A stretch of 64,000 nt of DNA, taken from positions 64,001 to 128,000 of the IMG/VR virus record IMGVR_UViG_3300014059_000005; one strand, written 5' to 3'. How positions within the stretch are numbered: position 1 is the first letter of the stretch; each line of letters opens with the position of its first letter. This DNA comes from a virus (lineage: Duplodnaviria; Caudoviricetes). A model generated the notes under the pieces. It did not search any database. It was not told where the DNA came from and was given only the letters and a program-made list of their open reading frames with translations. The position numbers and the translations under genes are program-made. Below are positions 23,868 to 51,566 of the stretch, one piece after another.

Positions 23868-24122
23868 TCATGGTGATGTGGGCGTGCTAGATTGTGAGGG
23901 GTTGAAAGGGGATAAGGGGCTGGGATCTTCGGGTCCTGGCCCCTTATTATTTGTCTTTCTGAGGACAAGACGAAATCCGTAGTAGTCGGAGAGTGCCCTT
24001 GACACATTGTAGTTGCGATAGCAAGAGTAGGCGTTCGATGGTTGATAGGATAACGCACCGCCTCGGAGCAACCGGAACGGTCTCTGAGTGAGAATCGGTT
24101 TGGGTCTTGCGATAAGGATCAT
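23868..24122 (-). CDS. CLec/FGE C-terminal mini-cassette C1 (diverged, extended tail)
   Basis: MILIARPKPI...RLLRGG...YGFRLVLRK. Confidence 0.75.
   Translation of the reverse strand: MILIARPKPILTQRPFRLLRGGALSYQPSNAYSCYRNYNVSRALSDYYGFRLVLRKTNNKGPGPEDPSPLSPFNPSQSSTPTSP
23912..23955 (+). terminator. Terminator at the convergence of the late (+) and replication (-) arms
   Basis: ATAAGGGGCTGGGATC-TTCG-GGTCCTGGCCCCTTAT (cUUCGg loop) followed by a T-rich tail. Confidence 0.8.
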
Positions 24123-24295
24123 GGTATTCTCTTGCGGAGAATTATCCGGAAGCCCAAGAAGTCGATCCGGTCCGTAGGCCCGGCCCAGTCACGGTTCGCC
24201 GACCGACAAGATAGACTGCGGTAGTACCAGCCACCGCCCTGTAGCACCCGGTAGGAGCCATCGATGATCGGTCTAGATCTAGCAATCAGGATCAT
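24119..24295 (-). CDS. Mini-cassette C2
   Basis: Hand translation MILIARSRPIIDGSYRVLQGGGWYYRSLSCRSANRDWAGPTDRIDFLGFRIILRKRIP; ATGA overlaps at both ends. Confidence 0.85.
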   Translation of the reverse strand: MILIARSRPIIDGSYRVLQGGGWYYRSLSCRSANRDWAGPTDRIDFLGFRIILRKRIP

Positions 24296-24483
24296 TTATC
24301 CCTCTTTCTGAGGATTACTCGAAAGCCCAGACCACCACAGCGAAAACTTTCCGGGTTCCAGATTCTATGCCACGAACTGGATCGCCAGACCATGCTCTGG
24401 AAGCCGCCACCTCGGATGGTATGGGAAACACACTGGGAAGCGATCAGGGACACCAGGGTCCCTGATCGCTTCACCAGAATCAC
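24292..24483 (-). CDS. Mini-cassette C3 (directly after FGE core; contains hairpin)
   Basis: GTG start overlaps the core stop; ...IRGGGF...LGFRVILRKRDK. Confidence 0.75.
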   Translation of the reverse strand: MILVKRSGTLVSLIASQCVSHTIRGGGFQSMVWRSSSWHRIWNPESFRCGGLGFRVILRKRDK

Positions 24484-25298
24484 TGGGAGCCTCCGGACTC
24501 TCCAGACTCCCGAAGGGCCTTTTCTGCCGCCTCGACTTCCTTTTTGTACCTCTGGGCATCATAGAGGCAGGCACACCACTCCCAGACGTTGCCGTGCATG
24601 TCGTAGAGGCCAAAGGCATTACAGGGATAGGATCCCACCGGGGTGGTCCGGTTGATCTTCTCATCGAAGTTGGCCATGTCGTGGGTCAGAGTGCTGCCAA
24701 AGGTGTAGGCGCTCCGGGTGCCGCCTCGACAGGAATACTCCCACTCGTACTCGGTGGGTAGTTCGTAGTAGTATCCCTTGGCGATCTCCTCGGGCAGTTC
24801 GGAGAGTTTCTTGCAATACTCCTGGGCGTCGTGCCAGGACACATTTTCCACGGGGTGGCCGGGGTGCTTGAAGGACGTGGATGGATTGGTGCTCATCACC
24901 TTCTCCCACTCCCTCTGGGTAACGGGAAAGGTCCCCATGTACAGACCTTCCATCTGCACCAGGTGCTGGGGACCTTCATCGGAATGACGATGGGGCTCAC
25001 TGTCCGGAGAGCCCATGACATTGATGCCGGGAGGAGTGACCTTGAATTCCATGCCGATCGAGTTGACGATCCTTGGCATGACCACCGGGACCTTTTCCAG
25101 GAGCATGGCCTGGATCTGCTTCTCCACCTCGGGATCGTAGGAATCCGGATCGAGTTGGTTCAGGGTCATCCGTAGGAGTCGTGCGGATTGCTCCCGACCT
25201 TCTTCGATCAGGGCATCGGTGAGGGCAAACCACCCCGTGGTGTCATTGGGGTCGATGGTGAGAGCGTGCAGGATCGAATCGGTGTCGGTGAAGGCCAT
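24480..25298 (-). CDS. TIGR02996-like domain + C-terminally truncated FGE-sulfatase/CLec 'core' protein
   Basis: '..PND...W..L.DAL.E.G'; FGE motifs 'NSIGMEF', 'MGSP..E', 'EGPQH', 'PVTQ..W', 'PVENVSW.DA..YC..L', 'LPTEYEWEY.CRGG', 'N.FGLYDMHGNVWEWC'; lacks RGGSW...GFR; AAGGAAAG RBS. Confidence 0.88.
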   Translation of the reverse strand: MAFTDTDSILHALTIDPNDTTGWFALTDALIEEGREQSARLLRMTLNQLDPDSYDPEVEKQIQAMLLEKVPVVMPRIVNSIGMEFKVTPPGINVMGSPDSEPHRHSDEGPQHLVQMEGLYMGTFPVTQREWEKVMSTNPSTSFKHPGHPVENVSWHDAQEYCKKLSELPEEIAKGYYYELPTEYEWEYSCRGGTRSAYTFGSTLTHDMANFDEKINRTTPVGSYPCNAFGLYDMHGNVWEWCACLYDAQRYKKEVEAAEKALRESGESGGSQ

Positions 25299-25487
25299 AG
25301 TGGACTTTCCTTGTGTAAGGGACTTACGGAGAACACGAAAACCAAAGAAGTTGTACCAGTTTGCTGGTTCACAGGCGTTTCGGTACGTCAACCGGCAATA
25401 CATCGCAAGAGATAGCCAGCAACCACCTCGAAATATCCGATATGGGGAATCGGGGTATGTTGTTCGCAAGGTAGTGGTGAGAATCAT
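25299..25487 (-). CDS. Mini-cassette C4, with no stop codon, reading in frame into the FGE core
   Basis: MILTTTLRTTYPDSPYRIFRGGCWLSLAMYCRLTYRNACEPANWYNFFGFRVLRKSLTQGKST-MAFTD. Confidence 0.7.
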
Positions 25488-25663
25488 TTCTCTTTTTTCT
25501 TTCTGAGAGCAACCCGGAAGCCCATGTCGTTGTATCGTAATGTTGGTCTGTACCCGATGCGGTACGACGACCTGTAGTTCCGGCCGACGCAGCCCCAGCA
25601 ACCACCCCGGCTCATCCAGAGGGAACCCTGAATGATCGGCCCAGGTTTAGCAATGAGGATCAT
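25484..25663 (-). CDS. Mini-cassette C5
   Basis: MILIAKPGPIIQGSLWMSRGGCWGCVGRNYRSSYRIGYRPTLRYNDMGFRVALRKKKEK. Confidence 0.85.
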   Translation of the reverse strand: MILIAKPGPIIQGSLWMSRGGCWGCVGRNYRSSYRIGYRPTLRYNDMGFRVALRKKKEK

Positions 25664-25836
25664 CAGCCCCTCTTTCTGAGGATTGCCCGGAAGCCCAGGA
25701 GGTTGTCCCGGAGCATCGGCACGAGCCTGAGGCAGCGTGCCGACCGGCAGTTCTGGCCGGGGCTGTACCAGCAGCCGCCCCGGATCACCTGGAAGGAGCC
25801 CTGGAGGATCGGTCCAGGTCTAGCGATCAGGATCAT
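25663..25836 (-). CDS. Mini-cassette C6
   Basis: MILIARPGPILQGSFQVIRGGCWYSPGQNCRSARCLRLVPMLRDNLLGFRAILRKRG. Confidence 0.85.
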   Translation of the reverse strand: MILIARPGPILQGSFQVIRGGCWYSPGQNCRSARCLRLVPMLRDNLLGFRAILRKRG

Positions 25837-26009
25837 CTCGACCTCTTTCTCAGGATCACCCGGAAGCCCAGATCGTGGTCCCGTTTCGGCGGCACGACCC
25901 TGCGGCGGTCCGCCGACCGGCAGTACAGGCCGTGACCGTTCCAGCAGCCGCCCCGGAACACCCGGTAGGAGCCCTGAATAATTGATTTAGGTTTAGCAAT
26001 CAGGATCAT
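25833..26009 (-). CDS. Mini-cassette C7
   Basis: MILIAKPKSIIQGSYRVFRGGCWNGHGLYCRSADRRRVVPPKRDHDLGFRVILRKRSR. Confidence 0.85.
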   Translation of the reverse strand: MILIAKPKSIIQGSYRVFRGGCWNGHGLYCRSADRRRVVPPKRDHDLGFRVILRKRSR

Positions 26010-26191
26010 TTCGATCTCTTTCTGAGGATTGCTCGGAATCCCAGGCCGTTTTCCCGATACGTTGGTGTATACCTGTGGCGGTACACCGACCGGCAGAACT
26101 GGCCGATGTTGACCCAGCAACCACCCCGGATCGTCTGGAACACCCGGTAGGAGCCCAGGGTGATTGATCCAGGTTTAGCAATCCGGATCAT
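26006..26191 (-). CDS. Mini-cassette C8
   Basis: MIRIAKPGSITLGSYRVFQTIRGGCWVNIGQFCRSVYR...LGFRAILRKRSK. Confidence 0.85.
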   Translation of the reverse strand: MIRIAKPGSITLGSYRVFQTIRGGCWVNIGQFCRSVYRHRYTPTYRENGLGFRAILRKRSK

Positions 26192-26373
26192 TAGCCTCTC
26201 TTTCTGAGGATTACCCGGAAGCCCAGATCGTCGTACCGGAACGCTGGTCTGTATCCGATGCGGTACGACGACCTATAGTTCTCGCCGACGCAGGCCCAAC
26301 TACCGCCCCGGATCGCCCAGATCACCCAGTGGGAGCCCAGGGTGATAGGTCTAGGTCTAGCAATCAGGATCAT
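26191..26373 (-). CDS. Mini-cassette C9 (first gene after promoter P1)
   Basis: MILIARPRPITLGSHWVIWAIRGGSWACVGENYRSSYRIGYRPAFRYDDLGFRVILRKRG; GAGGAG RBS. Confidence 0.85.
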   Translation of the reverse strand: MILIARPRPITLGSHWVIWAIRGGSWACVGENYRSSYRIGYRPAFRYDDLGFRVILRKRG

Positions 26374-26403
26374 TTGTCTCTCCTCTTTCCTTGCTGTGTC
26401 ACA

Positions 26404-26431
26404 ACTATGCACCAGGAATTCGGAAAGTCAA
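26404..26431 (-). promoter_or_regulatory. Conserved sigma70-like promoter P1 driving the cassette/FGE-core operon
   Basis: TTGACT-N16-CATAGT; the same architecture occurs at five other sites. Confidence 0.7.
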
Positions 26432-26450
26432 ATGAAAATGAAGAGTTCGG

Positions 26451-26780
26451 CTACAGCTTCCTGCGGTTGCGAAGTTCCGCATCCCCACCACAGAAGCGGC
26501 ACAGCTTGTGCTTCGTGGCGCAATTGGTACAGAGCACATCCACACAGGTGTTGCCATAGTGCATCTCCGTCTTGCACATTCCACACAGGGCTACGGTACA
26601 CATGGCACCACCGATACGGCCCCGCATGTAGTGGCAAACCCGGCACATGCATTTCTTCTTGCGGATCTCCAGATCGGGATCTTCGTAGCACTTTTTGACA
26701 GAATCGTAATATGCCTGTGAATAATTCGTCGCTCTCAAAACGGCACAGAGATCCCAGGGTTTGTAGATTGGCTCTCGCAT
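26451..26780 (-). CDS. Cys-rich Zn-finger hypothetical protein
   Basis: Several CxxC pairs (CRVC, CGMC, CTNC, CRFC). Confidence 0.6.
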   Translation of the reverse strand: MREPIYKPWDLCAVLRATNYSQAYYDSVKKCYEDPDLEIRKKKCMCRVCHYMRGRIGGAMCTVALCGMCKTEMHYGNTCVDVLCTNCATKHKLCRFCGGDAELRNRRKL

Positions 26781-27382
26781 GATAATAAACTCTTGCGAAT
26801 CTTGTTCAGGGCGTTGACATGGGACTGACTCACTGCTGATCGGGACACTCCCAGGCCATCGGCAATGTCGCACAGCCGTCTACCCTTGAGGTAGTGTTCT
26901 TCCAGTACGAATCGCTGATAGGGCTTCAGGACGGACAGGAGGGACTCACAAAGATCGGCATCGTCCAGGGTTCGCTTCCAGGAGCAATCGATGACAGGGA
27001 GGGCCTTGGGGTCATAGGGGACTCGGGTGGGCAATGGATAGACGACCTTGGCCTCGAAACTGCTCTTGCTCATGGGATGGTGTAGACTGCGAATATATCG
27101 CTGTATCTGGTTGCGGACACTCCTCCAGGCGTAAGTGCCGAAGCGGACCCCATGCCTGGAGTCATAGTTCCTGGCACATCTCCAGAGTGCCACATCCGCT
27201 ACCTGGACCAGTTCCTCGTAATCGAAGCACATCCCCAGGAATCTACCGTATTGGAGTGCCTTCTTGGCCAGGATTCTGGAGACTCCACGGTTCTCGGACC
27301 AGAGTAGTTCGATCCGGAGTCTCTCTTCTTCGGCGGACTTGCTCGTGGATTCTTTCGTGGACTTGCTCGTGGATTTGCTCAT
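26735..27382 (-). CDS. Sigma-70 family RNA polymerase sigma factor 1
   Basis: 'EELVQ.A..ALW.....YD...G..F.TYA' region 2; 'L...QR.V....Y..G.....IA..LGVS...VSQ....AL.KIR' region 4. Confidence 0.85.
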   Translation of the reverse strand: MSKSTSKSTKESTSKSAEEERLRIELLWSENRGVSRILAKKALQYGRFLGMCFDYEELVQVADVALWRCARNYDSRHGVRFGTYAWRSVRNQIQRYIRSLHHPMSKSSFEAKVVYPLPTRVPYDPKALPVIDCSWKRTLDDADLCESLLSVLKPYQRFVLEEHYLKGRRLCDIADGLGVSRSAVSQSHVNALNKIRKSLLSCESQSTNPGISVPF

Positions 27383-27401
27383 GACCGTGTACCCGAATCC
27401 C

Positions 27402-27434
27402 AAAGAGAGGGGGACACAACCGCCCCCTCTCTTT
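27402..27434 (-). terminator. Hairpin terminator
   Basis: AAAGAGAGGGGG...CCCCCTCTCTTT 12-bp inverted repeat. Confidence 0.6.
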
Positions 27435-27442
27435 CGCGAAGG

Positions 27443-27625
27443 TCACTTCTTGCTGGGTTTGGGTGCCAGTAACTTGGCGAGCAATTCCAGGGCCTTGTGT
27501 GTGGGCAATTCGGACAGGATCTTCCAGGATACGGCGTGGACTCGGGACACGTCCGCCACACCGATCTTGGTCTTCTCGGTGTCCACCTCGCTGGCCACGG
27601 CATTCTTGAACTCGGTCGGGGTCAT
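27443..27625 (-). CDS. Small basic protein
   Basis: 60 aa; ATGA-coupled; followed by the terminator. Confidence 0.55.
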   Translation of the reverse strand: MTPTEFKNAVASEVDTEKTKIGVADVSRVHAVSWKILSELPTHKALELLAKLLAPKPSKK

Positions 27626-28272
27626 CGGTCTATCTCGTGAGATTCAGAAGATATCTCCGGGGTCACATATTCGGTCCCGGAGTCCACAGGTCGGGTACGG
27701 ACCACGCTGCCCGTTACCAGCCTACGATTGTGGGTCACGAACAGGATCTGGAGTCCTAATTCTCTGGAGAGAGTCTCCAGGAGGAACCTCACTCGATCCT
27801 GGTATTCCTCGGAGACGAAGCGAAAGGGCTCGTCCAGGGCCAGGAATGTTCGTCTCCTGGTTCTGGATAATAACAGACAGGCCAGCCTCAGGGCAAAGGC
27901 ACTGACATCGATTACACCACCTCCACAGGACCCCAAGGGGTCCTCGACCTCTCTACCATGATCGAGAAGGGTGAGTGTAGCCTCGGTGCGGCCACGCTTG
28001 TCCTCGAAATCGATTCGCAGGGAATAGGTATCCTTGCCGAATACTGCTTCCAGGCATCTGGAGGCTATCTCGGAGACTCTACCGTGGCAGGCCTCCTGAA
28101 CCTGAACCGCAACTTCCTGGGCGATGGAGAGAGACTTTTTCAGGTGTTCCTGCTCCTGGATCAATTCCTGGGATCTGGAGGACTCACTGGAAGTATTCTT
28201 GATGGCAACCTGGTATTCCATCAGGAGAGGTCGCAATTGATTCCGATAACGATCCAGGGCGGTAGGCGTCAT
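27622..28272 (-). CDS. SbcC/Rad50-like ATPase, C-terminal half
   Basis: Signature 'CGGG', 'FALRL', Walker B 'LALDEPF', H-loop 'FVTH'. Confidence 0.85.
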   Translation of the reverse strand: MTPTALDRYRNQLRPLLMEYQVAIKNTSSESSRSQELIQEQEHLKKSLSIAQEVAVQVQEACHGRVSEIASRCLEAVFGKDTYSLRIDFEDKRGRTEATLTLLDHGREVEDPLGSCGGGVIDVSAFALRLACLLLSRTRRRTFLALDEPFRFVSEEYQDRVRFLLETLSRELGLQILFVTHNRRLVTGSVVRTRPVDSGTEYVTPEISSESHEIDR

Positions 28273-28445
28273 GAGGTTTTCTTTCTGAGGATTACCCGGA
28301 AGTCCAGATCGCTGAACCGGAACGTCGGCTCGAGCCTGCCACGGTACGCCGACCGGCAGTTCCGGCCGCTGCTGCTCCAGCCGCCGCCCTGGATCACCCG
28401 GCCAGAGCCCTGTAGGATCGGCCTAGGTCTAGCGATGAGGATCAT
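28269..28445 (-). CDS. Mini-cassette C10
   Basis: MILIARPRPILQGSGRVIQGGGWSSSGRNCRSAYRGRLEPTFRFSDLDFRVILRKKTS. Confidence 0.85.
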   Translation of the reverse strand: MILIARPRPILQGSGRVIQGGGWSSSGRNCRSAYRGRLEPTFRFSDLDFRVILRKKTS

Positions 28446-28618
28446 GGTGTTCTCTTTCTCAGGATTACCCGGAAGCCCAGGCCGTGGTTCCGAACCGCCG
28501 GCACGTACCTGTGGCAGCGTGCCGACCGGCAGTTCTGGCCGGGGCTGTACCAGCCACCGCCCCGGAACACTGAGAGGGAGCCCTGGATAATTGATCTAGG
28601 CCTAGCAATCAGGATCAT
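28442..28618 (-). CDS. Mini-cassette C11
   Basis: MILIARPRSIIQGSLSVFRGGGWYSPGQNCRSARCHRYVPAVRNHGLGFRVILRKRTP. Confidence 0.85.
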   Translation of the reverse strand: MILIARPRSIIQGSLSVFRGGGWYSPGQNCRSARCHRYVPAVRNHGLGFRVILRKRTP

Positions 28619-28791
28619 TTGTCTCTCTTTCTGAGGATTACTCGAAAGCCCCGGCTAAGATAGCGGAACGACGCAAAATATCTATAGCGGCGTGTCAATC
28701 CACAGGTCCCATAGCAGCTACGCCAACCACCACCCCGATACACTGGTTCATTTCCTTGAATGCCTGGTTTGGGTCTAACGATCTGGATCAT
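28615..28791 (-). CDS. Mini-cassette C12
   Basis: MIQIVRPKPGIQGNEPVYRGGGWRSCYGTCGLTRRYRYFASFRYLSRGFRVILRKRDK. Confidence 0.8.
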   Translation of the reverse strand: MIQIVRPKPGIQGNEPVYRGGGWRSCYGTCGLTRRYRYFASFRYLSRGFRVILRKRDK

Positions 28792-28862
28792 CTGTCTTTC
28801 TTTCTGAGGATTGCCCGGAAGGAGCCCCAGACAATCGGTCTGGGTTTGTTGATCCGGATCAT
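28788..28862 (-). CDS. 'Empty' mini-cassette C13 (variable region deleted in frame)
   Basis: MIRINKPRPIVWGSFRAILRKKDR; leader joined directly to tail. Confidence 0.75.
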   Translation of the reverse strand: MIRINKPRPIVWGSFRAILRKKDR

Positions 28863-29041
28863 TTCATATTCTTTTTCAGGATCAACCGCAATCCAAAGTT
28901 GTTGAACGTGGTTTGTGGAATGTACCCAACACGCCTGGCCGCTCGGCAGGGCCATTCATAGTTGAACCAGCCGGCCCCCCGAACCATGAGTTCTCGGCCC
29001 CGAAAGATCGGTCTAGGTCTAGCGATCAGGATCACGATCAT
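28859..29041 (-). CDS. Mini-cassette C14
   Basis: MIVILIARPRPIFRG...VRGAGWFNYEWPCRAARR...FGLRLILKK. Confidence 0.8.
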   Translation of the reverse strand: MIVILIARPRPIFRGRELMVRGAGWFNYEWPCRAARRVGYIPQTTFNNFGLRLILKKNMK

Positions 29042-29430
29042 TTCCCCCGAAGTCTGGGTCCATATTCTTCCTCGAACCTCTGATATTCATCATCGATCGA
29101 ATCTTGCTGATGTCGTAATTGCGCAGCAAGTCTCGTCAATTCCTCCCGGGCGTCCTCCAGGGAGTTACAACCGAACTGAGTTTTCAATCTACGAAGGACT
29201 TCCTGGAGGGCTCCCTGGACCCGATCTCTTTGTCGGGTTACGGTCTCTAGTTGCTCCTGGATAGCACGGTACTCCTCTACCGTGATCCGCTTCGTGGAGA
29301 CCCCCGGTCGATCGCCGTCAGGAGGATCTCCTCCACCCTGGGGTCTTCCGGTTGGATTCGCAGTCTTTGTCTCACGGCCTCCTGATACGACGGTGGTGCG
29401 TCGGGAGCCCTTTTCAGTGTTTCCAGACAT
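29038..29430 (-). CDS. Small coiled-coil protein (start uncertain, probably near 29290)
   Basis: Heptad-rich C-terminal part; within the sbcCD cluster. Confidence 0.5.
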   Translation of the reverse strand: MSGNTEKGSRRTTVVSGGRETKTANPTGRPQGGGDPPDGDRPGVSTKRITVEEYRAIQEQLETVTRQRDRVQGALQEVLRRLKTQFGCNSLEDAREELTRLAAQLRHQQDSIDDEYQRFEEEYGPRLRGK

Positions 29431-30245
29431 AGATCGATCTCACCCCCCAGAACCTTCTTTGGTTTTCTGTGATCCTCGGTCAGTACATCCCTGGAGCAAT
29501 CCAGGTAGTGCGGTTCTATGGAATCATCAGAATGATAGATCCACACCCTGGGCTCGTGATCCTTCTGGTCCACGGCCAGCCGCATGAGCGAGCCGCAGTT
29601 GACCACTGGGGGGACCTTCTTCCTGGCGGCAAAGGGTATATGATTGTCCCCCACGAACACCGCGTTGTAGCCCTGGACCATACTCCGCAAGGCATCGAGG
29701 GAGTGGGACTCTGGGGCATCCTTGTATCCCGTACTGTATCCAGCAGTCCTGGTCCAGGTGTAGCGATGTACCACTGCTACTTCCTGGAGCAAGGACACCC
29801 CGCCTGTCAGTGGTTCCGGGTCCTGCCTCCAGGGGAATCCCCAGAGCCTCAGAGGGTGTGCCCCGGGAATTTCCACTGGTTGTCCAAAATGCAGAGGGAT
29901 GACCCTACCAGACAGCACCAGAGTGTGAAACGACGATCTGTGGATTTGTGCGTAACTATGATTGGGTAGGTCGTGATTACCCGCCACGGAGTAGAGTGTC
30001 GGCAGGTACTCCAGGGCGAAGTTCACCAATTCCGGGGGCGAAATGGGAATATCGAATATATCCCCACAGCAGATTACTGGCACCCGGAGAGTGTCAGCAA
30101 GGTTGCGAACCTGGAGGAGAACTCTCTTCTGAGCCTCGTACCAGCTGGGCTCCGACTGTCTGCACACAGGAGGCGTATGCGACAGATGGATATCGGCCAG
30201 GAATATCGCCACCGGAACTACAGGGTAGACCGGCAGAGCGGACAT
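29277..30245 (-). CDS. SbcD/Mre11-like metallophosphoesterase nuclease
   Basis: 'ADIHL', 'CGDIFD', 'AGNHD', 'GDNH.P', 'NCGSL.R'. Confidence 0.88.
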   Translation of the reverse strand: MSALPVYPVVPVAIFLADIHLSHTPPVCRQSEPSWYEAQKRVLLQVRNLADTLRVPVICCGDIFDIPISPPELVNFALEYLPTLYSVAGNHDLPNHSYAQIHRSSFHTLVLSGRVIPLHFGQPVEIPGAHPLRLWGFPWRQDPEPLTGGVSLLQEVAVVHRYTWTRTAGYSTGYKDAPESHSLDALRSMVQGYNAVFVGDNHIPFAARKKVPPVVNCGSLMRLAVDQKDHEPRVWIYHSDDSIEPHYLDCSRDVLTEDHRKPKKVLGGEIDLCLETLKRAPDAPPSYQEAVRQRLRIQPEDPRVEEILLTAIDRGSPRSGSR

Positions 30246-31135
30246 ATCTTCACTGCTTGCAGGCGGGAGTTCAGGGAGTCGATTCTCTCCTGGAGGCTTT
30301 CCTGCTCCTGGAGTAGTCCTTCTCCTTGGCCACATAGACTCTCCAACTCGTTTTTGGTATGGATGTACTCCTGGACCAGGAGTACACGATCACGAAGATC
30401 GGTCAGGGGACCGGACACGGTATCGAGAAACCCCAGGAGGTTTCGGAACTGCTCTGCGTCCCGAACAGCGTCTTCCAGGAATCGATGATGCTCGGTCTGG
30501 GTGTCCAGGGCCTCCTGCCGAGCCTGCAAGGCATCCAGGACGTCACAGGCCCCCGACACCCAGGATAGGGATTCGGAAGCCTCCTGAGCCTCCTGGAGAC
30601 GATTGCTGGACTCCAGGAGCGAGGATTTGTTCTGGCGGATTTGCTGGTTGATGTCGGTCAGGGTCTCGTCGATGGACCCCAGATCGATGATCCGGTCCAG
30701 TTCCCTGGCCAGTTGCCCCGGTGTCAGGTGGAACCAGAAGGAGGGGTCATGCTGGAGAGCAAAATTATCCTCACATAGATTCAGAATCTTTGCTACGGGC
30801 TCGGGGGCCTCGTTGGTCTTGAGGGCGTCCAGTCGCTCGCCATCGATCTCGTAGTAGTTACCTGATTTTCCATTCCCTGACTTTCCGTTGCTGGTCTTTC
30901 CCCGGTGACGGATAACTGTGTGTCCGTCGATACGAAGGGTCCCACGAACGAAGTCCGTGCCCTTGGTCCTAAAGGCATCCCCACTGGGTTTGTTATGGGC
31001 GATCCAGCGCAGGAGGCGGATGAGGCTGCTCTTGCCGGAATTGGTAGGCCCCACGATACAGGTGACGTGGGGATCCAGGTCCAGGGTCCATAAGGTGTGG
31101 GCCTGAAAGTTCTCCAGGGTGATGCTTTCTAACAA
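30218..31135 (-). CDS. SbcC/Rad50-like ATPase, N-terminal half ending at the Zn hook
   Basis: 'I.L.NFQAH', Walker A 'GPTNSGKS', Q-loop 'QHD', terminal 'CPLC'. Confidence 0.85.
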   Translation of the reverse strand: MLESITLENFQAHTLWTLDLDPHVTCIVGPTNSGKSSLIRLLRWIAHNKPSGDAFRTKGTDFVRGTLRIDGHTVIRHRGKTSNGKSGNGKSGNYYEIDGERLDALKTNEAPEPVAKILNLCEDNFALQHDPSFWFHLTPGQLARELDRIIDLGSIDETLTDINQQIRQNKSSLLESSNRLQEAQEASESLSWVSGACDVLDALQARQEALDTQTEHHRFLEDAVRDAEQFRNLLGFLDTVSGPLTDLRDRVLLVQEYIHTKNELESLCGQGEGLLQEQESLQERIDSLNSRLQAVKICPLCRSTL

Positions 31136-31137
31136 TA

Positions 31138-31887
31138 CTAGGCCCCCCAGCGAGCACGACGAACCAGAGGCTGTGCCCCCACGCCCAGCATCTCCCAGTC
31201 CTTTTTGGAGGCCTGGGCCTGTTCTTCGGCCCACTTGCACAGATACTCTGCCTGCTTGCTCTGGTTGAGTCCGTGAGCCTGGTAGCACAGGGCTACCGTG
31301 GCCTGGAACAGTTCCAGAGATTCATCCCGATCGCCATAGTAGACCAGATCCTTGATACGGCCCTCGATGGTCTGGACGGTAGGCTGGGGCTGGATCCTCT
31401 CCTGGATATCTTCGAGGATCTCCTTGGGATCGAAGACGAAGTCATCTGGTTCGGCATAGCCATCTTTGGGAAAGGAATCGGGCCAGCGCTTGTGGGCATT
31501 GGCGGTATCGGCAATATCATTATTGCCGTAGGCTTCCCGGGTGTCGGTATTCCAGGGGTTGCCCCTGGTGGGGACATAGAGTCTGAGTTTCTTGCCGTCC
31601 CAGTAGATGATGAAGTAGACCGGATGCTCCCAGTCTCCCCCAGCACGACAGCCCAGGATCTGGAGTCCGTTGGGGAGGACGCGATAGCCCAGGAGATCCT
31701 TGGGAGGGGTGTGATTCTCCTGATGCTCGAAGTTCTCGAAGTCGAATCTTACCTTGAGGTCGAAACTCAATCGCTCGCGGATCAGGTTGGAGTCCAGGTA
31801 GGAGTGTTGTCCATCCTGGGAGTAGAGCCTTCCGACGATCTTCTTGCGGAACTCCTCGGGAGAGATGATCGCGAAGAACCGGGACAT
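31138..31887 (-). CDS. Hypothetical protein
   Basis: 249-aa ORF in operon; AGGAG RBS. Confidence 0.6.
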   Translation of the reverse strand: MSRFFAIISPEEFRKKIVGRLYSQDGQHSYLDSNLIRERLSFDLKVRFDFENFEHQENHTPPKDLLGYRVLPNGLQILGCRAGGDWEHPVYFIIYWDGKKLRLYVPTRGNPWNTDTREAYGNNDIADTANAHKRWPDSFPKDGYAEPDDFVFDPKEILEDIQERIQPQPTVQTIEGRIKDLVYYGDRDESLELFQATVALCYQAHGLNQSKQAEYLCKWAEEQAQASKKDWEMLGVGAQPLVRRARWGA

Positions 31888-34603: not shown

Positions 34604-34783
34604 TTATTTCTTCTCGGATGATGTTCTGTATTCATCATTTCTCTTTCTCAGGACAACCCGGAAGCCCAGGTCGTCGTACCGGAATGTTGGCTCGTCCACG
34701 TAGCGGTACGCCAACCGGCAGTCGCCCCGGAGCACCCGCTCGGAGCCCTGAATGATCGGCTTAGGTCTAGCGATGAGGATCAT
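34604..34783 (-). CDS. Mini-cassette C15 (24-nt internal deletion)
   Basis: MILIARPKPIIQGSERVLRGDCRLAYRYVDEPTFRYDDLGFRVVLRKRNDEYRTSSEKK. Confidence 0.75.
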   Translation of the reverse strand: MILIARPKPIIQGSERVLRGDCRLAYRYVDEPTFRYDDLGFRVVLRKRNDEYRTSSEKK

Positions 34784-34968
34784 TAGCCCCTCTTTCTGAG
34801 GATTACCCGGAAGCCCAGGAGGTCAATCCGGTCCATCGGATTGAACCTGCCACGGAGTCCCGAACGGCGATGTCGTTCGGGACTCATCCAACTGCCGCCC
34901 CGGATCACCCGGTAGAGACCCTGAACGCTGGACCTGGGTCTGGGGATCAGTACCAGTGAACTAGCCAT
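34783..34968 (-). CDS. Mini-cassette C16
   Basis: MASSLVLIPRPRSSVQGLYRVIRGGSWMSPERHRRSGLRGRFNPMDRIDLLGFRVILRKRG. Confidence 0.8.
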   Translation of the reverse strand: MASSLVLIPRPRSSVQGLYRVIRGGSWMSPERHRRSGLRGRFNPMDRIDLLGFRVILRKRG

Positions 34969-41762: not shown

Positions 41763-42037
41763 TTCTTTCCTTTCTTGGGTTCTGGGGATTCCTCGAACAT
41801 CTCGAACTGTTCCAGGAACTCTTTCTGAGTGATAACCCAGCGCAGGGCGGAATCTGGACGGTTGAGCCAGCGAGTATGGAATACCACCAGGGGCTCCAGA
41901 TCGGACTCTCTCAGAGCAAGTTCACAGATGCGGTAGACCTTACTACAGACATTACCATCTCTGGATTTCTCCCTCCAGAGCCTACCTCTGGGAATCTGAT
42001 TCTGGAGATTCAGAAGTTCTTCTACGGTTTCTGGCAT
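41759..42037 (-). CDS. Hypothetical protein (DUF1653-like 'LE..VV......W.....F' pattern)
   Basis: AGGA RBS; weak motif resemblance. Confidence 0.4.
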   Translation of the reverse strand: MPETVEELLNLQNQIPRGRLWREKSRDGNVCSKVYRICELALRESDLEPLVVFHTRWLNRPDSALRWVITQKEFLEQFEMFEESPEPKKGKK

Positions 42038-42219
42038 GGATTCCTAGCCTGTTGTTTTCTCAGGATTACCCGGAAGCCCAAGTAGTTGAACCTGTACAAC
42101 GATACGACCCTATGGCGGTCCGCCGACCGGCAATATTGGCCGAAGTTGAACCAGCTGCCGCCTCGGAGCACCCGATCAGAGCCTTGAATAATCGGCTTCG
42201 GTCTAGCAATCAGGATCAT
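42022..42219 (-). CDS. Mini-cassette C17
   Basis: MILIARPKPIIQGSDRVLRGGSWFNFGQYCRSADRHRVVSLYRFNYLGFRVILRK. Confidence 0.85.
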   Translation of the reverse strand: MILIARPKPIIQGSDRVLRGGSWFNFGQYCRSADRHRVVSLYRFNYLGFRVILRKQQARNPCQKP

Positions 42220-42392
42220 GTCGTTCTCTTACGAAGGACAAGTCTCAATCCCACAAGGACAGATACTCCATCAGGCACAAACCAGCAACGGTACGCCGAA
42301 CGGGTCCAATCTTCGTTTGATGGGCGGCTACCGCCTCGGAGTATGGGCTCGACTCCCTGTAAGATCGGTTTGGGCTTTGTTATCAGGATCAT
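42216..42392 (-). CDS. Mini-cassette C18
   Basis: MILITKPKPILQGVEPILRGGSRPSNEDWTRSAYRCWFVPDGVSVLVGLRLVLRKRTT. Confidence 0.8.
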   Translation of the reverse strand: MILITKPKPILQGVEPILRGGSRPSNEDWTRSAYRCWFVPDGVSVLVGLRLVLRKRTT

Positions 42393-42565
42393 GATACTTT
42401 CTTTTTGAGGATTACTCGAAATCCCAGATCGCAGGACGAGGGCAGTGGCTCGTTCCCGTAGCGGAGCGATGACCGGTAACTCAGAACGAAGTCGTACCAA
42501 CTACTGCCCCGGATCACCCAGAGGGAGCCTGAGATGATCGGTCTAGGTCTGGCAATGAGGATCAT
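42389..42565 (-). CDS. Mini-cassette C19
   Basis: MILIARPRPIISGSLWVIRGSSWYDFVLSYRSSLRYGNEPLPSSCDLGFRVILKKKVS. Confidence 0.85.
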   Translation of the reverse strand: MILIARPRPIISGSLWVIRGSSWYDFVLSYRSSLRYGNEPLPSSCDLGFRVILKKKVS

Positions 42566-42744
42566 GGTGTTCTCTTGCGGAGAATGATGCGGAGGCCCAG
42601 GAAGAAGCCCGGGCCTGTCGGATCATACCCATAGCGGTCCGCCGATCGGCAGAACCGGCTGTACCCGTACCAGCTACCGCCCCGGAACACTCGGGACAGA
42701 TTTTCTGACCCGATCATCTTGTTGATATTGGATATCGTAATCAT
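42562..42744 (-). CDS. Mini-cassette C20
   Basis: ...SRVFRGGSWYGYSRFCRSADRYGYDPTGPGFFLGLRIILRKRTP (different leader). Confidence 0.8.
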   Translation of the reverse strand: MITISNINKMIGSENLSRVFRGGSWYGYSRFCRSADRYGYDPTGPGFFLGLRIILRKRTP

Positions 42745-43291: not shown

Positions 43292-43317
43292 TTGATCTCT
43301 ATCTAGTAGACCATTAC

Positions 43318-43911
43318 CTAGCGGACCACCGCATGGGTCAGGCCGGTTTGATTCTGGTACTTGCCTGCTTTGTCCGCATAGCTCACCCGGCACATCGAAT
43401 CCCCTCGCAAGAACAGAGCCTGGAGGATTCCCTCGTTCGCATAGACCCGGACTGGCATGGGTCCGGAGTTGGAGATTTCCAGAGTGACCTTGCCACGCCA
43501 CTCCGGCTCCAGAGGCGTGACGTTGACGATGATCCCACACCGTGCGTAGGTGCTCTTCCCCAGGCAGATCGCGATGATGTCCCGGGGGATTTCCAGATAC
43601 TCCAGGGTCTCTCCCAGGACGAAGGAGTGGGGCCTGATGATCACGCTGTCCCCCTCGTATTCCTCCCAGAGTTCGGGATCGTGGACCTTGGGATCCAGTA
43701 TCTTGTTTCGGTGTTCTGGGGGCAAATCCTCGAAGTCCTTGAGAATCCTGAACTTGCGCCCCAGTCGCAGGTCATACCCGTAGCTCGACACACCGTAGGA
43801 GATAAGACCCTGACCACTAACCGGATGGGACCAGGGAGCGATACGAACCTCACGGGCAATCTGGTGATCAGCAAGGGCCATGTTACTCTCCAATCTTGGA
43901 AAAGAGATCAC
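43318..43911 (-). CDS. dcd: dCTP deaminase
   Basis: 'ISYG.SSYGYD.R', 'GKSTYARCGIIVNVTPLEPEW.G..TLE.SN', 'SY.DK.GKYQ.Q.G'. Confidence 0.95.
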   Translation of the reverse strand: MISFPRLESNMALADHQIAREVRIAPWSHPVSGQGLISYGVSSYGYDLRLGRKFRILKDFEDLPPEHRNKILDPKVHDPELWEEYEGDSVIIRPHSFVLGETLEYLEIPRDIIAICLGKSTYARCGIIVNVTPLEPEWRGKVTLEISNSGPMPVRVYANEGILQALFLRGDSMCRVSYADKAGKYQNQTGLTHAVVR

Positions 43912-44096
43912 TGAGGTTGAATTGGATGTTTCTTTCTGAGGGCAATCCGGAAGCCCAGGTTGTAGAACCGAACTGTCGGCTCGAACCTGTTGCGGTTCGC
44001 CGACCGACAGCGTCCACCATAGAAGATCCAGCCGCCGCCCCGGTACACCCGGTCGGTGCCCCGGTTGATAGGTCTAGGTCTAGCGATGAGGATCAT
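43908..44096 (-). CDS. Mini-cassette C21
   Basis: MILIARPRPINRGTDRVYRGGGWIFYGGRCRSANRNRFEPTVRFYNLGFRIALRKK. Confidence 0.85.
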   Translation of the reverse strand: MILIARPRPINRGTDRVYRGGGWIFYGGRCRSANRNRFEPTVRFYNLGFRIALRKKHPIQPQ

Positions 44097-44272
44097 TTCA
44101 ATCTCTTTCTTAGGGCAACCCGGAAGCCCAGATAGTTGTCCCGATTCGACGGCACGAGCCTATCGCGGTACGCCGACCGGCAGTACCAGTTGTCGTAGCT
44201 AGACCAACTGCTGCCCCGGAACATCCGGTAGGAGCCCAAGGTGATAGGTCTAGGTCTAGCGATCAGGATCAT
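44093..44272 (-). CDS. Mini-cassette C22
   Basis: MILIARPRPITLGSYRMFRGSSWSSYDNWYCRSAYRDRLVPSNRDNYLGFRVALRKRLK. Confidence 0.85.
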   Translation of the reverse strand: MILIARPRPITLGSYRMFRGSSWSSYDNWYCRSAYRDRLVPSNRDNYLGFRVALRKRLK

Positions 44273-44445
44273 TTATCTCTCTTTCTCAGGACAACACGGA
44301 AGCCCAGATCGCTGAACCGGAACATCGGACCATTTCTAACGCGGGGCGACAACCGGCAGTACAGGTCGCCGCTGACCCAGCCACCGCCCCGAAACACCCG
44401 GTAGGGGCTCTAAATGATCGGCTTAGGTTTAGCGATCAGGATCAT
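44269..44445 (-). pseudogene. Mini-cassette C23 with TAG at codon 12
   Basis: MILIAKPKPII*SPYRVFRGGGWVSGDLYCRLSPRVRNGPMFRFSDLGFRVVLRKRDK; paralogs often have CAG at this position. Confidence 0.8.
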
Positions 44446-44456
44446 GTGGATTCCTC

Positions 44457-45059
44457 TCAAGCTCCCAGACCGGCCCCGTCATGGTATCGGAACAACCCAC
44501 AGGCAAGCAGTTTGCCCCGTGACGCCTCGATGGTGGCACTGACGGCCTGCGGGGACACCCCCAGCACCTTCGCCGTCTCGATCATGGATCCGGTCCCCGT
44601 CGGGCCGTAGACGGACCACATGATCTGGTACTGGCGTGGGGTCAGGGTGGCCTCGATCCTTTCCCACAACTCTTCCAGTTCGATCTTCGATCCCGGCCTT
44701 TCGTTTGCCAGCAACCACCCCAAAGAGTCCCCCTCGATGCTCTGGCAGCTGAGTCTTCGTATCTGCTCCCGGAGTGACTCCTTGGTGTGCTGCTCCGGGA
44801 TGTGGATGATCGTTCGCAGTACACTCGCCTCCCTGCGGAGACCCCTTTCCATCCAGACGGTGGCATACGTCGAGAAGGCGATTCCCCGCAACGGGTCCCA
44901 CTTCTCGGCCGCACGGATCAGGAGTAGCGTGGCGATCTGCACCAGGTCGTCCATGTCGTTCTCGTCCTGGCAAGCCCACCGCCCGAACCTCTGGGCTGCC
45001 GCGTGGGCCAGTCCCAGGTTCCCCTCGATCAACCTGTTCCGATGCTCGACGTCGCTCAC
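44457..45059 (-). CDS. Sigma factor 4
   Basis: 'RN.LIEGNLGL', 'DDL.Q.....LIRAAEKWDP.RG..FSTYA..W'; region-4 HTH. Confidence 0.88.
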   Translation of the reverse strand: MSDVEHRNRLIEGNLGLAHAAAQRFGRWACQDENDMDDLVQIATLLLIRAAEKWDPLRGIAFSTYATVWMERGLRREASVLRTIIHIPEQHTKESLREQIRRLSCQSIEGDSLGWLLANERPGSKIELEELWERIEATLTPRQYQIMWSVYGPTGTGSMIETAKVLGVSPQAVSATIEASRGKLLACGLFRYHDGAGLGA

Positions 45060-45235
45060 CGCTCCAGCCTCCGCTTCAGAATCAACCGGAAGCCCCGACC
45101 ACTACTCAGATATATCGGGGCAACCAATAGACGACTCGCCGATCGAACATACCGGCTATTGTTGCTCCAGTAACCACCCCGGATCACCTGGTGGGAGCCC
45201 CTGAGAATCGGTTGGGGTCTAGGGATCAGGATCAT
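45056..45235 (-). CDS. Mini-cassette C24
   Basis: MILIPRPQPILRGSHQVIRGGYWSNNSRYVRSASR...GFRLILKRR. Confidence 0.8.
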   Translation of the reverse strand: MILIPRPQPILRGSHQVIRGGYWSNNSRYVRSASRLLVAPIYLSSGRGFRLILKRRLER

Positions 45236-45368
45236 GGTGTTCGCTTTCTCAGGGCCAGTACCCGTCGCGGTAGGCGGACCAGAGGATCCCACCGACCCAG
45301 CCACCCCGGAGCACCCGAGACGAGGCCCCTACAACGACGATGTTTTTCGGTTTAGATATCAGGATCAC
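45232..45368 (-). pseudogene. Truncated mini-cassette C25
   Basis: VILISKPKNIVVVGASSRVLRGGWVGGILWSAYRDGYWP*; the LRKRTP tail is present but out of frame (3' deletion). Confidence 0.65.
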
Positions 45369-45550
45369 GGGACCTTCTTTCTCAGAACCAGCCGGACCCC
45401 GTAGTCGCGGACCCGGAAGTCCGGCTCGATCCAGTTGTGGAAGGCGGACCGGCAATACCTTCCGTAGAGGCAGCTACCGCCCCGGAGCACGCGAGCCGAG
45501 GCCCCGACCAGGGTAACGGTTAGCGGTGATCTGACGATGGTAAACTTCAT
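45365..45550 (-). CDS. Mini-cassette C26
   Basis: ...GASARVLRGGSCLYGRYCRSAFHNWIEPDFRVRDYGVRLVLRKKVP. Confidence 0.8.
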   Translation of the reverse strand: MKFTIVRSPLTVTLVGASARVLRGGSCLYGRYCRSAFHNWIEPDFRVRDYGVRLVLRKKVP

Positions 45551-47369: not shown

Positions 47370-47386
47370 TCCTGGATCATCTGTTC

Positions 47387-47960: not shown

Positions 47961-47973
47961 CGAATTCCTTCCC

Positions 47974-48867: not shown

Positions 48868-48903
48868 GTGGACTCCGTTGTCTGAAATGGTATCTGGTGG
48901 CTT

Positions 48904-49665: not shown

Positions 49666-49935
49666 AGCGCCCTCCGACTACTGTTTACCACCAAGGGTAT
49701 ATGCCACCACCGCGTAGAGACACAAAACCAGGATCGCCGCCAGGACTGCGTGCAGTCCTTCTACCCACAAGGACTCCGCATGGGGTGTCCATTCCGGATC
49801 CCACTCAGCATCGATTCTTACCACCATGCGATCTCCCTCGTGGTGTTCCTCATGGTGTCCCTTTCGAGTGGACTCGACGTGATCCAGACACCTATCACCG
49901 CAACGCCCGTTCGTGTTGTCTTTGCACATGATGGG

Positions 49936-49963
49936 AGTATGCACTCTGAATCGGATTTGTCAA
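49936..49963 (-). promoter_or_regulatory. Conserved promoter P3
   Basis: TTGACA-N16-CATACT. Confidence 0.6.
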
Positions 49964-49986
49964 ACGGAAATCTTTGGAAAGTATGA

Positions 49987-51201
49987 CTAGACCAGGCCCA
50001 GTTGATGCATCTGATGACTGCAAATCTTGTGCTCCAGCAGAGAATCCAGACCACAGTAGAGCAACAGGGGCTCCCAGCCATGACGCCGAACGAAGTCCCG
50101 TAGTCTGTTGGCGGTGTTGCCGCCGCTGGCCTTCATGTAGGGCTTGACGGTATGGTCATAGGCGTCCATCCCCAGAAGGGCGAATGCCTGGAATTTGAGC
50201 CCCGTAACCCCCTGGCGATTATCCAGAATGTGGGCGGCGATCATACCATCGAGCCCGGCGTCCCAGTTGTTCACCTCTACCCCGTAGAGGGTACGAACCC
50301 AGGTGGTCTCGAACTTGATATTATAACCTAGTTTGGGAGTATTCGACTCCAGAAAGTCCAGAGTAGCCTCCTGGGTCTTCCTGGTCCAGGGGTAGGCTAT
50401 GGACTCCCTACCGTCACTGAGTGAACAACAGAGGATCTCGGCGTCCCTGGGGTAGGGTTTGAGCATGTTGGTTTCCAGATCCCACGCCACTGGACGGGAT
50501 CCGATCATACTATGGATGCACGAGACGGCCTCCCCATCATCCAGAATCGTCCGGACCCGCTTGCGGTAGTCGGGGACGGTCTGGTAGGGGGGAGATCCCA
50601 CCAGGGCGATGGCGTCGGCCAGGACATCCTGGAACACCGACAGATAGGGATCTGGCCCACCATTTCTGGGCTCGTTGCGAAGGACATGAGCGGGGTGAAA
50701 GTTGGGTACGATCCAGCAGTTGAGTTGTTGATGGGGGATAGTCCAGCCTACCCACTTGTTGATACCTCCTGGGTCCTCCTTCCAGACCCAGCCAAGGACG
50801 CTGCGGACGGCAGCACCGCCCAGGAGGATCATGACCTCGGGTTTCAGTTCCCGAACCTTCTGGACGACCAGGGGACGGCAGTAATCGACTGCTTTCTCGG
50901 GGAGTAGGTTACGTGGAGGGTGACAGGATAGAGCATTGGTGATCCAGCAATCCTGACGCATGTCGATACCGAGACGGAGAAGGGTCCTGGCCAGAAGGTC
51001 TCCGGATCGACCACAGAAGGGCCTGCCCTGGAGATCCTCGTTGTCGCCAGGTGCCTCACCAACGATGAGGATTTTCTTCTGGCCCTTGCCCGAGAGCGGC
51101 ATCTTGGGAGTGCGACATTGCTTGAGAAGACCACACTTGCCACAGTTGGGGAGCAGGGGGATTTCGATCCGTTTGTGATCGCTGACACCAAAGAATCCCA
51201 T
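49987..51201 (-). CDS. Family-4 uracil-DNA glycosylase-like domain fused to a DnaQ-like 3'-5' exonuclease (polymerase N-terminal subunit)
   Basis: 'C..C.L', 'VGEAPG..ED..G.PF.G.SG..L', 'N...C.PP.N', 'HPA'; Exo I 'DLET', Exo II 'N..FE', Exo III 'YCGLD'. Confidence 0.88.
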   Translation of the reverse strand: MGFFGVSDHKRIEIPLLPNCGKCGLLKQCRTPKMPLSGKGQKKILIVGEAPGDNEDLQGRPFCGRSGDLLARTLLRLGIDMRQDCWITNALSCHPPRNLLPEKAVDYCRPLVVQKVRELKPEVMILLGGAAVRSVLGWVWKEDPGGINKWVGWTIPHQQLNCWIVPNFHPAHVLRNEPRNGGPDPYLSVFQDVLADAIALVGSPPYQTVPDYRKRVRTILDDGEAVSCIHSMIGSRPVAWDLETNMLKPYPRDAEILCCSLSDGRESIAYPWTRKTQEATLDFLESNTPKLGYNIKFETTWVRTLYGVEVNNWDAGLDGMIAAHILDNRQGVTGLKFQAFALLGMDAYDHTVKPYMKASGGNTANRLRDFVRRHGWEPLLLYCGLDSLLEHKICSHQMHQLGLV

Positions 51202-51204
51202 ATG

Positions 51205-51396
51205 TCACCGTGCTGGGGAATTCATTGGAGATTTTCGCAGAGCGATACGGAAGCCCAGGAGGCTGTACCGGAACGACGGCCCGCTCTTGTCGCGGTACGC
51301 CGACCGGCAGTCCCGGCCGAGGCTGCGCCAGCCACCGTTCCGGACCACCCGGTCGGAGCCCCGAATAATCGGTCCAGGTTTAGCAATCAGGATCAT
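51205..51396 (-). CDS. Mini-cassette C27
   Basis: MILIAKPGPIIRGSDRVVRNGGWRSLGRDCRSAYRDKSGPSFRYSLLGFRIALRK. Confidence 0.85.
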   Translation of the reverse strand: MILIAKPGPIIRGSDRVVRNGGWRSLGRDCRSAYRDKSGPSFRYSLLGFRIALRKSPMNSPAR

Positions 51397-51566
51397 TTGT
51401 CTCTCTTTCTGAGGATTACCCGGAAGCCATCATAATACTCTCCACTCCTTGGCCTCTCCCCGTAGCGATTACTAGAGCGAGTGTTGCCACCACCACGCCA
51501 GCCCGTACTCCGAAGCACACGGGTGGTTCCCTGCAAGATCAGTCGAGGCCTGACTATCAGTATCAT
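51393..51566 (-). CDS. Mini-cassette C28
   Basis: MILIVRPRLILQGTTRVLRSTGWRGGGNTRSSNRYGERPRSGEYYDGFRVILRKRDK. Confidence 0.8.
   Translation of the reverse strand: MILIVRPRLILQGTTRVLRSTGWRGGGNTRSSNRYGERPRSGEYYDGFRVILRKRDK

Follow-up and report, generated by a model that had tools for sequence, protein, structure and literature searches.

This analysis concerns a family of short genes, here called cassettes, and a single truncated core gene of the formylglycine-generating enzyme (FGE)/C-type lectin (CLec) fold, which lie together in the genome of a tailed phage (Caudoviricetes; IMG/VR record IMGVR_UViG_3300014059_000005). The window, i.e. the whole 64,000-nucleotide stretch that was analysed, represents bases 64001-128000 of this 139,665-bp record, which is 100% complete according to CheckV. 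A hidden Markov model (HMM) built from the obvious cassette copies and run over the six-frame translation of the complete record recovered 28 cassettes within the window and 40 in the record as a whole, and since the good copies reach E-values of 1e-16 to 1e-32, the family is not due to chance. A typical cassette comprises 57-63 codons, starts with MILIA(R/K)P and ends with LGFRVILRKR. All 28 window copies reside on the minus strand in seven clusters and were found where a first-pass annotation, made from the sequence alone, had placed them. The consensus proposed there was likewise reproduced (MILIARPxPIxQGSxRVxRGGxW...CRSAxR...P...LGFRVILRKR). Its count of 28 hence stands, whereas the family itself is larger, since 12 further copies are located at genome positions 10692-13624 (plus strand), 134365-134726 (minus strand) and 137585-137767 (minus strand). 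With nine of these 12 on the plus strand near the left genome end, the family spans the whole phage, and its 40 copies fall into 11 clusters situated at gene junctions. Within each cluster the cassettes are co-oriented, and neighbouring copies are joined by an ATGA overlap in 23 cases and by a one-base overlap in three.

The core gene is embedded in the first cluster of the window. Read from an internal ATG, it encodes a 272-aa protein (24480..25298, minus strand) with an FGE-sulfatase domain (PF03781, E=3.5e-38, 132 bits against a cut-off of 23.3) that covers profile positions 7-208 of 255. The domain is cut after GNVWEWC and followed by a 30-aa helical tail, so that the protein ends 30 residues past WEWC and not about 22 residues after the last FGE motif as had been noted earlier. 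A PF03781 search of the complete record returned this single core and no full-length FGE domain.

Upstream of the internal ATG the reading frame continues without a stop into a 335-aa open reading frame (ORF; 24480..25487, minus strand), which consists of an N-terminal cassette, a helical TIGR02996-like domain and the C-truncated FGE/CLec core. This fused cassette (25299..25487; HMM score 45.5; Pfam positions 206-255) has a divergent MILTTT start, reads from the usual ATGA coupling straight into the core and keeps RGGCW...CRLTYR...GFRVLRK. The earlier view of a core that lacks its completing segment is hence right with regard to the C-terminal end, but the core is not simply bare, as it carries an in-frame cassette at its N-terminal end. 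The same in-frame fusion, identical at 189/189 nt, is kept in a related phage contig (L080, see below), and judging from this conservation the core product may be a circularly permuted domain that completes itself. The purine run AAGGAAAG lies upstream of the internal ATG, and initiation there could give a bare, short form of the core.

The match to TIGR02996, the repeat-companion domain of a Gemmata paralogous family, spans residues 69-109 of the 335-aa ORF and stays below threshold (18.1 bits against a cut-off of 29.05). The assignment to a Planctomycete phage in the first-pass annotation is as such not established, and the sub-threshold match is a hint only. When the 335-aa ORF was modelled with AlphaFold 2 (AF2), the core reached a predicted local distance difference test (pLDDT) score of 80-95, and residues 1-64, where the alignment holds only two rows, remained below 50.

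A frameshift fusion of the core to the cassette downstream of it was also considered, as both frames are open over about 78 nt, with C AAA AAG as the only slippery-like run. L080 lacks this run and shows a stop there in the -1 frame, and the downstream cassette has its own GTG start. As the two phages share no slippery site, this candidate was rejected.

Complementarity of core and cassettes

On the Pfam FGE-sulfatase profile, with its 255 positions, the core occupies 7-208 and the cassettes that were tested occupy 211-254. The proposal that the core lacks exactly what each cassette encodes is supported by these complementary positions and with the presence of one core in the genome. The cassettes score 12-23 bits on PF03781, at or below the cut-off of 23.3, yet always at positions 211-254. 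A whole FGE domain in normal order is not found in any one polypeptide of the record; the 335-aa ORF contains it in permuted order.

In Foldseek searches the predicted core matched PvdO (5HHA), TvpA (2Y3C) and human FGE (1Y1H) with a probability of 1.00, with target TM-scores of 0.43-0.52 that refer to a core without its last segment. Sequence and predicted structure point to the same closest proteins, namely human FGE, PvdO and TvpA, the latter being a variable protein of a diversity-generating retroelement (DGR). Among solved proteins, the cassette profile matches TvpA best, at residues 251-292 (of 294), which are its variable region (VR; E=2.5e-8), and true FGE enzymes follow well behind this non-catalytic protein at about 1e-3. 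Catalytic formylglycine-generating enzymes carry a closely spaced Cys pair in their C-terminal segment (Cys336/Cys341 in human FGE). The cassette consensus has one conserved Cys (in CRSA, 19/29 copies) and no C-x4-C pair, which points to the binding type of the fold rather than to an enzyme. A search for longer proteins that share cassette-specific words found none.

Selection and translation signals

In a codon alignment of 29 good cassette copies, conserved residues vary almost solely at third codon positions, and in the invariant Arg and Leu columns H1/H2 are near 0 and H3 is 1.3-1.6. Variation limited in this way indicates purifying selection on a translated product. Cassettes without such selection would have contradicted the initial interpretation; the codon patterns instead support protein-level purifying selection on genes that possess their own starts, stops and putative ribosome-binding signals.

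The latter show an unusual arrangement. Upstream of the cassette starts the consensus CTCAGAAAGAGA-N6-ATGATCCTG is found, and its purine-rich run (CTCAGAAAGAGA), which precedes 32/39 starts, is composed of the LRKR codons of the preceding cassette. The two Arg columns of LRKR use AGR in 18/26 and 19/19 codons, and the five internal conserved Arg columns are CGN almost throughout, with 0-3 AGR per 17-29 codons. This concentration of AGR in the tail indicates that the constant C-terminus is dual-coded as the ribosome-binding site for the next cassette.

Close relatives and recombination

Logan contigs L080/L081 and L082/L083 represent close relatives with flanks that are 93-94% identical. The gene order in L080 matches that of the present phage (sigma factor, cassette array, 272-aa core, cassette). 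The core has the same length of 272 aa and the same end point in both, and with a ratio of nonsynonymous to synonymous substitution rates (dN/dS) of 0.08 at dS 0.63 it is, on sequence grounds, functional as a truncated protein.

Upstream of the core, L080 is one cassette unit short, and some of its cassettes are chimeric. L082 is devoid of a 1.1-kb block bounded by cassettes, and cassettes orthologous between the phages are either nearly identical or replaced wholesale. These mosaics and whole-unit insertions or deletions, as read from the contigs, are the traces of recombination between cassettes. The cassette fused to the core is unchanged in L080 while the adjoining cassettes have been shuffled.

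Layout of the cassette clusters

The first cluster of the window opens, in the direction of transcription, with a 60-aa cassette (26191..26373; HMM score 95.5) that differs from its L080 ortholog by three synonymous and one nonsynonymous change. It is followed by cassettes of 61 aa (26006..26191; 88.8), whose L080 copy is a mosaic with an adjoining cassette, 58 aa (25833..26009; 101.3), 57 aa (25663..25836; 98.5) and 59 aa (25484..25663; 93.9), the last of which has an L080 ortholog with one synonymous change. Beyond the fused cassette and the core lie a degenerate copy of 63 aa (24292..24483; 27.9), whose GTG start overlaps the core stop (GTGA) and whose L080 counterpart is intact, a 58-aa cassette (24119..24295; 99.3; Pfam positions 211-254) and an 84-aa cassette with a Pro/Ser-rich C-terminal extension (23868..24122; 74.1, profile positions 1-55).

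The second cluster holds cassettes of 60 aa (28859..29041; 66.7) and, three times, 58 aa (28615..28791; 83.6; 28442..28618; 103.5; 28269..28445; 101.1). In between lies a 24-aa remnant (28788..28862; 13.8, profile positions 1-16) with its variable middle deleted, in which the constant N-end MIRINKPRPI is joined directly to the constant C-end FRAILRKK and which is ATGA-coupled on both sides. Two cassettes follow further on, one of 61 aa that overlaps the end of a RecA-like gene (34783..34968; 66.7; PF03781 positions 209-254) and one of 59 aa without the GGxW loop (34604..34783; 79.0). The fourth cluster comprises a 60-aa cassette directly downstream of a sigma-70 gene (42562..42744; 79.4), two of 58 aa (42389..42565; 89.1; 42216..42392; 81.6) and one of 65 aa (42022..42219; 107.4).

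In the fifth cluster, a probable pseudogene (44269..44445), interrupted at codon 12 by an in-frame TAG but intact in L082, precedes cassettes of 59 aa (44093..44272; 97.8) and 62 aa (43908..44096; 95.3). The sixth contains a 61-aa cassette with a divergent N-terminus (45365..45550; 45.5), a truncated one of 39 aa with a GTG start (45249..45368; 20.1) and a 59-aa cassette that is ATGA-coupled to the downstream sigma-70 gene (45056..45235; 65.8). The last pair comprises a 57-aa cassette (51393..51566; 77.4) and a 63-aa one (51205..51396; 95.4), the latter located just upstream of a UDG/exonuclease gene. In total, five of the 28 window copies are imperfect, namely the fused, the 24-aa, the 39-aa, the TAG-bearing and the degenerate GTG-started one.

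Structure modelling

For a model of the complex, the FGE part of the core (residues 140-335 of the 335-aa ORF; 29 alignment rows) was combined with the free cassette 28442..28618 (23 alignment rows). The pair obtained an ipSAE of 0.92 and the best of three controls 0.00; in a benchmark, the mark was reached by 58/80 solved complexes and by 2/110 mismatched pairs. Three runs agreed in at least 97% of contacts, with a partner pLDDT of at least 77. The modelled interface involves cassette residues 11-55; there, GFR and RGG are in contact with the VWEW region, with the GF of GFR packed onto the VWEW strand.

With the core replaced by an unrelated protein the cassette pLDDT was 35, and the cassette folded alone with its own alignment gave a pLDDT of 55.7 and a predicted TM-score (pTM) of 0.18. 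In these predictions the lone cassette hence has no confident fold, which speaks against autonomous folding, one of the alternatives that had been raised at the outset. The comparison of complex and lone peptide that the first-pass annotation had proposed thus yields a complex that passes its controls and a peptide that is not confident. Since the intact fold has been solved many times as a single chain, the pass may, however, reflect likeness to known structures rather than binding, and we read the model as an indication that both halves fit together within the canonical fold, not as one of binding.

Relation to diversity-generating retroelements

Given the similarity to TvpA, the question arises whether the cassettes belong to a DGR. 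The variable region indeed corresponds to the segment that binds ligands at the C-terminal end of a CLec fold, and the variable columns of the cassettes coincide with the positions targeted by DGRs (Spearman 0.62, p=5e-5). The complete record, however, has no match to reverse transcriptase (RT; PF00078), which the same search detected in a control DGR contig (L068), and none to Avd (PF05635), and 0/40 copies are adenine-rich as would be expected of a template repeat. From the sequence, the present phage is not a DGR.

Conservation along the nucleotide columns follows a broad distribution with a single mode, and many of the differences are synonymous third-position changes that affect C, G or T. 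Adenine mutagenesis was examined as a candidate signature, and only a modest bias was found: variable codons lean towards NNC (51% C at position 3 versus 31% in conserved columns), which is accounted for by the Y/N/D/F/S-rich composition together with the C-over-T preference of the genome. A scan of 185,579 species genomes with a single-cassette query gave no template and five matches, all of them ordinary full-length FGE proteins that share YRFNYLGF by chance. An old DGR ancestry is possible; current rewriting of the cassettes by a DGR is not supported.

Occurrence in other phages

The combination of one C-truncated core with cassettes was found in at least seven further unrelated phage-like contigs. 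Viral contigs with core homologs are mostly ordinary DGR loci (a full-length protein and an out-of-frame template copy); the exceptions are four whole IMG/VR records (L070, L010, L027 and L074), each with exactly one core (positions about 5-211) and two to six cassettes, and none has a reverse transcriptase by the search that was positive for L068. In L070, a 264-aa protein has a cassette at about residues 13-50, which a 16-residue linker joins to a core that ends ahead of RVLRGGSW, and this permuted protein is followed by six mini-ORFs of the same cassette type. In L010, L027 and L074, two to four cassettes are fused in frame ahead of the truncated core.

A search of 1.84 billion protein representatives with the cassette profile also retrieved proteins made up of tandem cassettes only (P0030, P0037, P0057). 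Their genomic contexts (L084, L085, L086) show cores of 152-162 aa that end just past the WEW motif, directly beside cassette genes, and in L085 and L086 the cassette arrays with the short core adjoin SbcD/SbcC, like one cluster in the present phage. The anticipated co-occurrence of cassettes with truncated FGE cores hence extends to L070, L010, L027, L074, L084-L086 and L080, and none of the contexts examined had cassettes but no truncated core, a combination that would have spoken against the proposal. Among distant kin defined by DNA polymerase A, 683 kb of sequence surrounding PolA, from 52 loci, was devoid of cassettes, and the five whole records that were searched gave no FGE domain; this joint absence of core and cassettes speaks neither for nor against the model.

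A further 639-aa protein from the representative library (P0019) combines an FGE-like core with about 11 cassette units in tandem behind it, the reverse of the N-terminal fusions seen in P0031 and P0032.

Discussion

Taking sequence and modelling together, we consider it somewhat better than an even chance that the phage encodes a germline two-part CLec binder, with a single scaffold and alternative peptides that complete it, either in cis or in trans. The constant scaffold would consist of the helical N-terminal domain and the FGE core, cut in a surface loop directly ahead of the NPxGP / RVxRGGSW segment. The two missing strands of the core (RVxRGGxW and LGFRV) would come from any one of up to about 40 peptides, each 57-63 aa long and translated on its own, and the loops between these strands would form what is the ligand-binding face in TvpA-type proteins. 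By docking non-covalently and completing the fold, the peptides would turn one scaffold gene into a panel of binding sites and take the place of the mutagenesis by reverse transcriptase with which phages usually diversify this fold. Should the cis cassette fill the site of the long product, the free peptides might compete with that cassette or serve the short isoform that starts at the internal ATG. Physical trans-completion, supported by a model, is inferred here, as are the simultaneous expression of all cassettes and any ligand.

As to where such a panel would act, all window clusters belong to the minus-strand early/replication module, next to four sigma-70 genes, RecA, parts of SbcCD, PolA and UDG/exonuclease, and the plus-strand virion module ends at about 23.8 kb. 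This setting, together with the translational coupling, favours a role inside the infected cell over a receptor-binding role in the virion. One could go further and speculate that the system is a natural split-protein display in place of DGR hypermutation, i.e. an antibody-like panel completed in trans and plausibly directed against variable host defence or surface proteins; we regard this more far-reaching version as a possibility, on balance a doubtful one.

Several observations weigh against a two-part binder. The ratio of cassette to core genes is 40 to 1, most cassettes lie far from the core, and several copies are decayed. The fused upstream cassette could fill the binding site in cis, and AF2, with two alignment rows covering this cassette, did not place it. 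A pass in complex modelling can stem from the memory of intact FGE structures. Lastly, the MILIARP leader is highly conserved yet falls outside the confident part of the interface, which leaves part of the peptide's role unexplained.

The in-frame fusion leads to a different explanation, namely that only the 335-aa circular permutant matters and that the free cassettes are mainly recombination donors or by-products that now and then replace or reshuffle the expressed one. The conservation of the fusion in L080, the direct permutants and N-terminal cassette fusions elsewhere (L070, P0031, P0032), the whole-unit differences and chimeric cassettes among the relatives including the 1.1-kb block missing from L082, and the 24-aa remnant that joins two constant ends would all fit. 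Silent donors, however, need no ATG, stop, ribosome-binding run or protein-conserved MILIARP leader of their own; the fused cassette is identical in two relatives whose neighbouring cassettes are shuffled and is thus not often swapped; the window copies are co-oriented, so that exchange by deletion would be one-way; and cassette-only genes beside cassette-less short cores (L084-L086) show that a cis fusion is not required. We hence hold this explanation to be unlikely.

Nearly the same applies to stand-alone effectors, for instance decoys that insert into or titrate host FGE/CLec sensors, or short motifs that bind other targets. A surplus of 40 peptide genes per core in early operons near sigma factors, RecA, SbcCD and PolA would be in line with such a function, as would the natural cassette-only tandem proteins (P0030, P0037, P0057) and the report of FGS-domain effectors in planctomycete conflict systems (PMC7159879). 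What makes the idea rather improbable is that a C-truncated core stands beside the cassettes in every context examined (L084-L086, L070/L010/L027/L074, L080), that the lone cassette has no confident fold and that no longer proteins with cassette-specific words were found in our search.

It is also conceivable that a DGR outside the phage, such as one of the host, writes the cassettes as its remote variable regions. In that case one would expect variable columns at DGR-targeted positions, an enrichment of NNC in variable codons and a DGR variable protein as the closest solved relative, all of which is observed. The NNC bias is, however, explained by composition and the C-over-T preference; the complete record has no RT and no Avd, with 0/40 adenine-rich copies; column conservation is unimodal and not of the invariant-or-hypervariable kind, with many synonymous changes at C, G or T; the L080 orthologs are near-identical or replaced wholesale rather than changed at VR sites only; and the genome scan, although limited to a single-cassette query, gave only ordinary FGE proteins. 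Such an origin thus appears very improbable to us. A selfish or decaying repeat family, i.e. a duplicated 3' gene fragment that spreads by recombination without a function of its own, would account for the dispersal of the copies over 11 clusters at gene junctions, for the truncated, degenerate or stop-containing ones and for copy numbers that differ between close relatives. It would hardly account for third-position-only variation, retained starts and stops and a dual-coded ribosome-binding run, all indicative of selection for translation, nor for a two-part architecture that arose or persisted in several unrelated phage lineages, and we give this last explanation very little credence.

A two-part binder would resemble several known systems without coinciding with any of them. 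TvpA of Treponema denticola (PDB 2Y3C) and other FGE-type DGR variable proteins share the fold, and the cassette corresponds to the TvpA variable region; here, in contrast, the variable region is a separate gene in 40 fixed versions without adenine-specific variation. Tandem CLec domains, targets with several VRs and remote targets have already been described (PMC10907252, PMC5758913, PMC7159879), for instance three tandem CLec domains in DGR targets of Thiohalocapsa PB-PSB1 (PMC10907252) and eight tandem DGR targets in Stenotrophomonas (PMC5758913). These loci likewise place many variable CLec sites in tandem in one genome, but with a complete CLec domain per site and RT-based diversification, whereas the present phage has many tips and one truncated core.

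The gene conversion of pilE/pilS and the shufflons combine constant flanks around a variable middle with many copies and recombination between them, and the cassettes are similar in each of these respects. They differ in that they have their own start, stop and ribosome-binding run, that the window copies are co-oriented (28/28 on the minus strand, i.e. no inverted cassettes as in a shufflon) and that the single cassette resembling an expression site is unchanged between relatives. RNase S (S-peptide and S-protein) and engineered split proteins arise in the laboratory or by proteolysis, and each involves one peptide. In the complex suggested by our models a short peptide would likewise supply missing strands non-covalently, with the difference that the split would be genetic and natural and would involve about 40 alternative peptides.

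In the literature searched, we found no account of mini-genes that encode a VR alone and share one truncated core. The impression recorded in the first-pass annotation, that no system like this has been described, is in agreement with that search; it does not hold in the sense of uniqueness to the present phage, as the architecture recurs elsewhere. Such a class has probably been overlooked because many gene callers discard genes as short as about 180 nt and because a large DGR survey clustered only targets >300 nt (PMC8144416).

If the two-part binder is real, it would constitute a third phage route to binding-site diversity beside DGR mutagenesis and whole-gene paralogy, with many tips on one body, about a quarter of the coding cost per specificity and all variants present at once. 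The CLec fold is known to tolerate massive sequence variation, and a natural fragment complementation on this fold would be of direct interest for binder engineering. As a split-protein display, it would moreover represent a mode of binding diversity that is not known in any virus.

Families of full-length FGE paralogs in phages (nine in L036, four in L028) likewise provide germline diversity with no visible nearby template. Their members measure about 250 aa, whereas in the present phage only the last 45-55 residues are multiplied, which amounts to roughly fourfold less coding sequence per specificity. In L036, an unrelated 121-kb viral contig, the nine paralogs of about 250 aa each are arranged in tandem (L036:4539-11425), no template copy is visible in the fetched stretch, and the array can be regarded as a whole-domain counterpart of the cassette strategy.

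Neighbouring genes

The four sigma-70-family genes lie within 20 kb of each other, all on the minus strand (26735-27403, 40337-41011, 42755-43540 and 44457-45059). Three of them directly abut cassette clusters, and the one at 44457-45059 has cassettes on both sides. An SbcCD-like module (27622-31288, minus strand) appears to be split by five cassettes: an AAA_23/SMC_N head (30218-31288) and a metallophosphoesterase (29277-30335) are followed by a 130-aa ORF and the five cassettes, after which a 216-aa piece with a weak match to the Rad50 C-terminal ATPase is found (27622-28272), all on the minus strand. Between the sigma factor gene and the first cassette cluster lies a 140-aa Cys-rich ORF with several CxxC pairs (26451-26873, minus strand), which has no Pfam or NCBIfam match and is conserved in L080 with a dN/dS of 0.13.

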